A stretch of DNA of 64,000 nucleotides from Betaproteobacteria bacterium SG8_41. GTDB taxonomy: Bacteria; Pseudomonadota; Gammaproteobacteria; Burkholderiales; SG8-41. The position numbers and the translations under genes are program-made. The DNA lies in the NCBI GenBank assembly GCA_001303585.1, contig LJTT01000007.1, positions 74,031-138,030 of the forward strand. The letters are read 5' to 3'. Positions 24,688 through 24,843 of the stretch are shown here, piece after piece; position 1 is the stretch's first letter, and every line of letters starts with the position of its first letter. The notes under the pieces are model-generated. The model searched no databases. It was not told the DNA's origin and saw nothing but the letters and a program-made list of their open reading frames with translations.

Positions 24688-24836
24688 AGTTTCCAGTTTC
24701 CAGTTTCCAGTTTCCAGTTTCCAGTTTCCAGTTTCCAGTTTCCAGTTTCCAGTTTGGACGGCGGTGGATTAAGAAATTTCACACTATTAAGCCTGGAACT
24801 TTGAACTCAAAACTCGAAAATTGAAACTCGATTAGG
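24688..24836. repeat. Largest heptad array: (AGTTTCC)x9.7, a spacer, then an arm of opposite polarity
   Basis: Nine perfect AGTTTCC units at 24688-24750 plus a partial unit. Then a ~40-nt spacer. Then GGAACTT TGAACTC AAAACTC GAAAATT GAAACTC GATTAGG (24795-24836), running into the phoH2 Shine-Dalgarno AGGGAGG. Confidence 0.9.
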
Positions 24837-24843
24837 GAGGTTC

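Follow-up and report, generated by a model that had tools for sequence, protein, structure and literature searches.

Within the window (the whole 64,000-nt stretch of contig LJTT01000007.1 of Betaproteobacteria bacterium SG8_41 analysed here), bcp, which encodes a peroxiredoxin, lies immediately upstream of phoH2, which encodes a PIN domain fused to a PhoH ATPase (Table 1). On direct reading, the 165-nt spacer between them is filled by 9.7 copies of AGTTTCC, a 39-nt core and five heptad units of the opposite polarity. The AGTTTCC array has the top tandem-repeat score within the window (TRF period 7, 9.7 copies, score 136). On the minus strand, which is the G-rich strand, the array reads (GGAAACT)n and lies 3' of the oriented core (..AGGCTTAATAGT GTGAAATTTCTTAATCCACCGCCGTCCAAA), with the heterogeneous arm (GAGTTTC..GTTCAAA GTTCC) 5' of the core. 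The tetranucleotide GATT separates the last heptad unit from the Shine-Dalgarno sequence, and both this sequence and the phoH2 ATG are outside the repeats; a similar Shine-Dalgarno sequence precedes phoH2 in the orthologous loci of sister species G008, G004 and G014. An earlier, sequence-only reading of this DNA had already picked out the array, core, opposite arm and Shine-Dalgarno sequence, and this layout was borne out, except that the Shine-Dalgarno sequence is 3 nt from the ATG and not 4 nt as it had stated.

Table 1. Features of the bcp-phoH2 locus and of the interval downstream of phoH2 (positions are those of the window)
Feature	Position	Strand	Evidence and remarks
bcp (AhpC/TSA peroxiredoxin, 152 aa), upstream cistron	24220..24678	+	Pfam PF00578, E 8.9e-37
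bcp stop codon TGA	24676-24678	+	followed by a 9-nt linker before the array
Homogeneous arm, expanded; + strand (AGTTTCC)x9.7	24688..24755	-	TRF, 100% matches
Core / apical loop	24748..24794	-	nhmmer core-profile match; the 39-nt non-repeat part is 24756-24794
Heterogeneous arm, five units GGAACTT TGAACTC AAAACTC GAAAATT GAAACTC (+ strand)	24795..24829	-	direct reading
Shine-Dalgarno AGGGAGG (24834-24840), 3-nt TTC and phoH2 ATG (24844)	24834..24846	+	direct reading
phoH2 (PIN + PhoH ATPase fusion)	24844..26271	+	Pfam PIN_4, E 1.1e-37; PhoH, E 2.2e-45
Second heptad element, coreless, between convergent phoH2 and dnaB	26276..26339		TRF and direct reading
GC hairpin GCGCG-GAA-GCGCGC, abutting the dnaB stop codon right after the coreless heptad palindrome	26340..26353		direct reading

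A promoter and terminator scan called nothing inside the bcp-phoH2 spacer, and an Rfam search of 22-29 kb at E ≤ 1 returned two sub-threshold chance matches only, neither of them in the spacer. The element is most simply taken to be part of the bcp-phoH2 transcript. In the toxin-antitoxin-like locus described for PhoH2 (PIN-PhoH) proteins, a small phoAT antitoxin ORF, co-transcribed with phoH2, lies upstream of the gene, whereas here bcp is in its place: no small phoAT-like ORF was found before phoH2, the upstream gene being that for the 152-aa peroxiredoxin and the spacer consisting of repeats only.

The DnaB gene is on the minus strand, convergent with phoH2. The coreless element between the two consists of GTTCAAG GTTCCAG GTTTCCA GTTCCGT GTTCGAA followed directly by (GAACCTT)x4.6 (TRF on 26308-26339: 4.6 copies, score 64), and the GC hairpin beyond it has no U-tract and received no terminator call. 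The presence of this second element had led to the remark that phoH2 is bracketed by the two biggest arrays of the window. The element is real, but the bracketing is unremarkable, since 67 genes in the genome have an element on both flanks (49 expected). Further along the window, a heptad element composed of xxGTTTC units and GAACCTT/AAACCCG units (28364-28445) lies upstream of the minus-strand ORF 27898-28347; the sequence-only reading had put this site between rpsR and rplI, in an essential operon. A 12-bp tandem repeat within a long minus-strand ORF (29971-30057; 7.2 copies, TRF score 132) is unrelated to the heptads.

Contigs from conspecific strains were found by exact-protein look-up of identical Bcp or PhoH2. 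Full AGTTTCC units in their spacers number 5, 7, 9, 9, 9 and 10, the value of 5 coming from a closed 3.3 Mb conspecific chromosome (CP070703.1), and outside the array the spacers are identical apart from one SNP. A comparison of array length across strains had been proposed as a check on the idea that the perfect array is a slipped-strand substrate with a variable copy number, and these differences among conspecifics confirm that prediction. The bcp-phoH2 array also shows rapid homogenisation of unit variants. In an ENA contig that carries the bcp 3' flank (ERZ925377; L128), AGTTTCC is followed by (AGTTTTT)n, a change of CC to TT, and the contig stops within the array. Elsewhere, many contigs, among them C12, C23, C47, C53, C55 and C72, end in perfect arrays of about 13.4 copies (~94 nt). 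Assembly from short reads is broken by heptad arrays, so that actual copy numbers probably exceed those assembled.

The genome to which the window belongs (G000) is a 3.75 Mb, 62.9% GC betaproteobacterial MAG in 147 contigs. Over the whole genome, perfect arrays of at least 3 copies number 181 for period 7, 7 for period 6 and 2 for period 8, an excess at period 7 well above what chance would give. For degenerate segments the corresponding numbers are 511 (21.9 kb), 26 and 11, and the 511 period-7 segments merge into ~439 elements, which make up ~0.6% of the genome. There are many unit families, including GTGAATC (the commonest), GTGACCG, GTTCAAG, GTTTCAA and GTTTCCA, and they differ from locus to locus. 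Where arrays are neighbours, a GT-first array is followed by a ..AC array in 33 cases, with the reverse order in two and a direct arrangement in two; around GT-first arrays there are 7.8 reverse-complement units downstream vs 1.3 upstream. A dispersed motif with 10-nt units (TTAGCCGCAGATAAACGCAGATAAACGC; ~387 loose matches, examples being C8:8389, C95:14580 and C128:8600) is often the core between GTGA-type arms.

Gene context was assigned with a crude ORF scorer made for this analysis, and by this measure 230 elements lie between tandem genes, 74 between convergent genes and 31 between divergent genes (background 1820, 445 and 458, respectively), revealing enrichment between convergent genes and depletion between divergent ones. 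The median distance from an array to the downstream start is 35 nt, and that to the upstream stop 38 nt. Hypervariable arrays are also seen where genes converge and beside many housekeeping genes.

A GTTC-type sub-family of these elements has a heterogeneous (GTTCNNN)n arm, an oriented core (GAGGAACTTCG-N~15-CGTCCAA) and, after it, an array of (NNNGAAC)n that is homogeneous and expanded. The heterogeneous arm is similar between dispersed copies, and the homogeneous arrays beside the core are built of CTTGAAC, CTTGAAA, CTGGAAA, CCTTAAA and other units. With an nhmmer profile built from 22 genomic cores, 27 copies were found in G000 at E < 0.05, the bcp-phoH2 locus among them. The match at this locus is marginal (C69:98810-98778 on the minus strand, which is window 24780-24748; E 0.042, 15.6 bits), and the orthologous spacer of G008 (L148) has a core match at E 9e-6 that shares its strand with the window locus. 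To judge from its sequence, the core at bcp-phoH2 has diverged from the dispersed core of which it is a copy.

Expansion in this sub-family is one-sided. Twenty copies have their longest perfect run 3' of the core and four have it 5', and median run length is 8.3 copies on the 3' side vs 2.0 on the 5' side (p = 0.0015). The bcp-phoH2 locus fits this pattern, with 9.7 copies on the 3' side and a longest perfect run of 1.7 copies in the heterogeneous arm across the core.

In most of 80 other betaproteobacterial loci bcp is directly upstream of phoH2, usually across a spacer of 13-300 nt that has no heptad arrays. An arm-core-arm element is present in the spacer of seven sister species (G020, G002, G018, G014, G008, G004 and G015), with unit sequences and arm lengths that vary by species; G002, for instance, has (GTTCAAG)x7 there, and the units of G020 are sixteen of NNNGAAC type. 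Heptads of GTGA/TCAC type, not of GTTC type, are found in the spacers of G016 (L101) and G010 (L102). In G001, G003, G005 and G013 the bcp-phoH2 stop-start junction is 2-30 nt, and these genomes have almost no heptads genome-wide.

Across the genus, the GTTCNNNx4 pattern occurs 0-4 times in ~12 of the 33 genomes and 126-1067 times in ~10. PhoH2 occurs in heptad-rich and heptad-free members of the genus alike, so the presence of heptads is not tied to it. A tree of bcp + PhoH2 groups G000, G008 and G004 (all occupied) and, separately, G001, G013 and G005 (all empty), with the rest unresolved; its resolution is too poor for it to serve as a test of one ancient insertion against repeated insertions.

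A correlation between contig skew and gene-strand bias is expected if the G-rich strand is the leading strand, as is generally the case in bacterial chromosomes; for the contigs analysed here it is r = 0.50. Replication direction was read from local GC skew on MAG contigs, a proxy used with no mapped origin or terminus, and for the core test in G000 the G-rich strand was scored over ±15 kb with the element excluded. Of the 27 cores in G000, 25 are on the G-rich strand (23 of 24 where |skew| > 0.02); for G008, G030 and G018 together the count is 40 of 41 (30 of 31 after filtering, p = 3e-8). The sole core on the C-rich strand in the sister-species test, L157 (G030:C251:6510), has its expanded arm on the 5' side (7.6 vs 2.7 copies). 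Perfect arrays of GTTC/GTTTC type read "..GAAC" on the G-rich strand in a ratio of 49:10 for at least 3 copies, 41:5 for at least 4 and 34:1 for at least 6.

Transcription gives no such pattern. Array orientation relative to the mRNA strand is 13:15, and relative to skew it is 13:1 beside head-on genes and 11:2 beside co-oriented genes; core orientation relative to gene direction is 6:7. It is clear that the orientation of GTTC-type elements and the side on which they expand follow replication direction, as given by the skew proxy, and not transcription. The GC skew of the window is uniformly negative, which places bcp-phoH2 on the C-rich strand, and the G-rich strand of the array has GGAAACT units, in agreement with the ..GAAC/GAAAC rule. 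Composition was rejected as the cause of the orientation bias, as skew is 3-6% only and the core, read on the G-rich strand, has a slight excess of C. Not all heptads obey the replication rule, since the GTGA-type arrays of G000 have no skew polarity (27:43, 15:15 and 7:5). An extension of the rule to the decamer-repeat core of GTGA-type elements, (CGCAGATAAA)n, was also rejected, its relation to skew being weak (184/322).

The two arms of the bcp-phoH2 element are indeed of opposite polarity, as first proposed, but the large structure that their pairing was proposed to place before the ribosome-binding site is unexceptional in thermodynamic terms at this locus. The minimum free energy (MFE) of the spacer RNA is -41.2 kcal/mol, and 49 of 200 dinucleotide shuffles fold as well (z = -0.67, and -1.1 in a second computation; z = -1.4 for the minus strand). 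Only 0.2% of the ensemble is in the MFE structure, which has a 6-bp helix in common with the centroid structure; in this helix, AUGAGC near the bcp stop is predicted to pair with GUUCAU overlapping the phoH2 AUG. Orthologous spacers from G020, G002, G018, G014 and G015 fold strongly (z from -3.4 to -5.7), whereas those of the clade of G000, G008 and G004 fold weakly (z of -1.1, -1.6 and +0.2), indicating that arm pairing is a property of the family that has decayed at the bcp-phoH2 locus.

The array is probably one arm, hyper-expanded, of an element from a lineage-specific family of inverted heptad repeats between genes, and this element is replication-oriented, prone to slippage and not tied to PhoH2. 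Unit number would change by replication slippage in the perfect array. The arms may fold back on single-stranded or nascent DNA at the fork, which would give the element its polarity and bias expansion to one arm, and copies may have spread, or been retained, in a single orientation relative to the fork, as do elements that transpose as single-stranded DNA. At this locus the element would be a co-transcribed insertion, tolerated between cistrons that were ancestrally joined by a tight junction, the Shine-Dalgarno sequence having been kept outside the repeats. Its effect on phoH2 is probably incidental. At most, it might modulate the coupling of the bcp and phoH2 cistrons, with arm pairing, where present, drawing the bcp stop and the phoH2 start together.

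No transposase or other trans factor was identified for heptad elements. RAYT/Y1 transposases were rejected as the driver, as Y1 genes do not co-vary with heptad load and there is no REPtron. There are three PF01797 matches in heptad-free G001 and none in high-load G009 and G014, a comparison limited by MAG incompleteness, and the two Y1 genes of G000 are not flanked by heptads. A bolder and distinctly tentative proposal is that GTTC-type elements form an undescribed replication-coupled class, in which copies are inserted or retained only when the core is on the lagging-strand template, one arm is lengthened by directional addition of repeats at the fork and a trans factor restricted to the heptad-rich lineages of the genus mobilises the elements or acts on them. 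If true, this class would give a mechanistic way into the bacterial heptamer excess, which has long lacked an explanation.

The sequence-only reading had raised the possibility of a functional link between the heptads and PhoH2, whereby phoH2 would be autoregulated through the array and its inverted arm, either as a folded RNA or as a substrate of the PIN-PhoH RNase/helicase. The element does fill the spacer and ends 4 nt before the Shine-Dalgarno sequence, the 6-bp helix does overlap the phoH2 AUG, and PhoH2 proteins unwind and cut RNA according to the account in PMC4826407 that cites Andrews & Arcus 2015. Against this, the spacer folds no better than its shuffles, the ~439 elements are beside unrelated genes (67 of which are bracketed just as phoH2 is), phoH2 is kept in genomes without heptads, polarity tracks GC skew rather than the gene, and the units in the bcp-phoH2 spacer differ in sequence between sister species. 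A PhoH2-specific control region is not supported as a reading of the array, and autoregulation of this kind is very improbable. It is also very doubtful that the array is a contingency switch in which unit number tunes phoH2 expression by way of the length of the spacer, the access of Rho or translational coupling to bcp, even though unit number is polymorphic among conspecific strains and the array is a 68-nt untranslated stretch, richer in C than in G, straight after a stop codon. Such C>G untranslated composition could favour Rho loading at rut sites. The array is, however, neither between promoter hexamers nor in an ORF, and it leaves the Shine-Dalgarno sequence and ATG untouched; arrays where genes converge, and those beside many housekeeping genes, are equally hypervariable, and there is no sign that phoH2 needs stochastic switching.

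That the arrays are operators, throughout the genome, for a CsrA-, Csp- or S1-like regulator that binds RNA would be compatible with the many arrays that abut start codons, at the short median distance given above, and operators have been proposed for heptamer repeats (MacGregor 2015, PMC4679880). Upstream stops are, however, equally close, orientation is random with respect to the mRNA strand for both arrays and cores, unit sequence changes from locus to locus, and convergent gene pairs have more elements, and divergent pairs fewer, than the background, all of which makes this reading highly improbable. A CsrA-type reading of the GGA motifs was rejected, as these are antisense to the bcp-phoH2 transcript and array polarity does not depend on the direction of transcription. 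A purely mutational origin, in which the heptamer is the favoured slippage unit of the replicase and there is neither an element identity nor spread, would agree with the ongoing slippage that perfect arrays imply, and a heptameric SSR excess in many bacteria is ascribed to the polymerase footprint in the part of PMC4692102 that cites Mrazek 2007. It is nevertheless unlikely, given that dispersed copies share an oriented core of ~40 nt and a similar heterogeneous arm, that the GT-first/AC-last chirality is strict (33:2) and that distribution within one genus is all-or-none.

The core, the ~95% co-orientation with skew in four species and the one-sided expansion point to a fork-coupled process at the DNA level and not to gene regulation. 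For annotation, this calls for caution against reading heptad arrays as gene-specific leaders, the conserved bcp-phoH2 operon being merely the host of one.

To our knowledge, an excess of heptamers has been noted since 2007 in Xanthomonas, cyanobacteria, Geobacter and giant sulfur bacteria, and there is no accepted origin or function for it. The elements described here are of this known kind, alongside the Xanthomonas GGGAATC repeats, cyanobacterial STRR, Beggiatoaceae TAACTGA repeats and Geobacter heptanucleotide elements. In Xanthomonas there are ~186 arrays per genome, of which 70-75 form inverted pairs that converge; the intergenic share is 89-93%, convergent genes flank 16% and divergent genes 7-8%, and array length varies widely between close relatives while their function is unknown (Rehm et al. 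2015, PMC4692102). The heptads of G000 resemble these in period-7 excess, inverted pairs, length variation and gene context (17% convergent, 7% divergent), and their commonest unit, GTGAATC, is one base from GGGAATC. They differ in having many unit families in place of one G-rich unit and no G-quadruplex potential, and in including a sub-family with a conserved oriented core and strongly replication-polar arrays; the Xanthomonas study (PMC4692102) explicitly saw no preference for the leading or lagging strand. TAACTGA occurs in Beggiatoaceae as 169 direct sets and one indirect set, for which a role as RNA-level operators was proposed (MacGregor 2015, PMC4679880). Like these repeats and the cyanobacterial STRR, the elements of G000 are abundant intergenic tandem heptamers of patchy phylogeny, often near start codons. 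Unlike them, as they are mostly direct and of one word, the elements here are inverted pairs of many words whose orientation is independent of transcription.

REP, BIME and REPIN elements are mobilised by RAYT (Y1 HUH) transposases, and their single-stranded DNA biology is expected to give a replication-linked orientation. As with REP/BIME, hundreds of intergenic inverted-repeat hairpins are found here in operon spacers and at gene 3' ends, with a central motif between the arms. The arms here are, however, tandem GTTCNNN or GTGANNN heptads and not a single palindrome of 20-40 nt as in REP/REPIN, and a GTAG/CTAC foot is absent from the aligned copies of the heptad element. The IS200/IS605 family and its non-autonomous derivatives have a near-absolute orientation bias relative to the replication fork (10.1101/279083), which is matched here by a strong fork-orientation bias (25 of 27 and 40 of 41 copies, by the GC-skew proxy). 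In contrast to that family, no linked transposase was found here and one end is an expanding microsatellite; defined left or right subterminal hairpins and a target tetranucleotide were not identified for the heptad elements. The SSR contingency loci of Haemophilus and Neisseria (PMC12721329) likewise have a perfect array upstream of a gene with a strain-variable unit number, but the array here is outside the ORF and promoter elements, is one of hundreds and has no evident on/off logic. Compared with all of these systems, what appears to be new in the GTTC-type elements is the conserved oriented core, the side-specific expansion and the near-absolute replication polarity.
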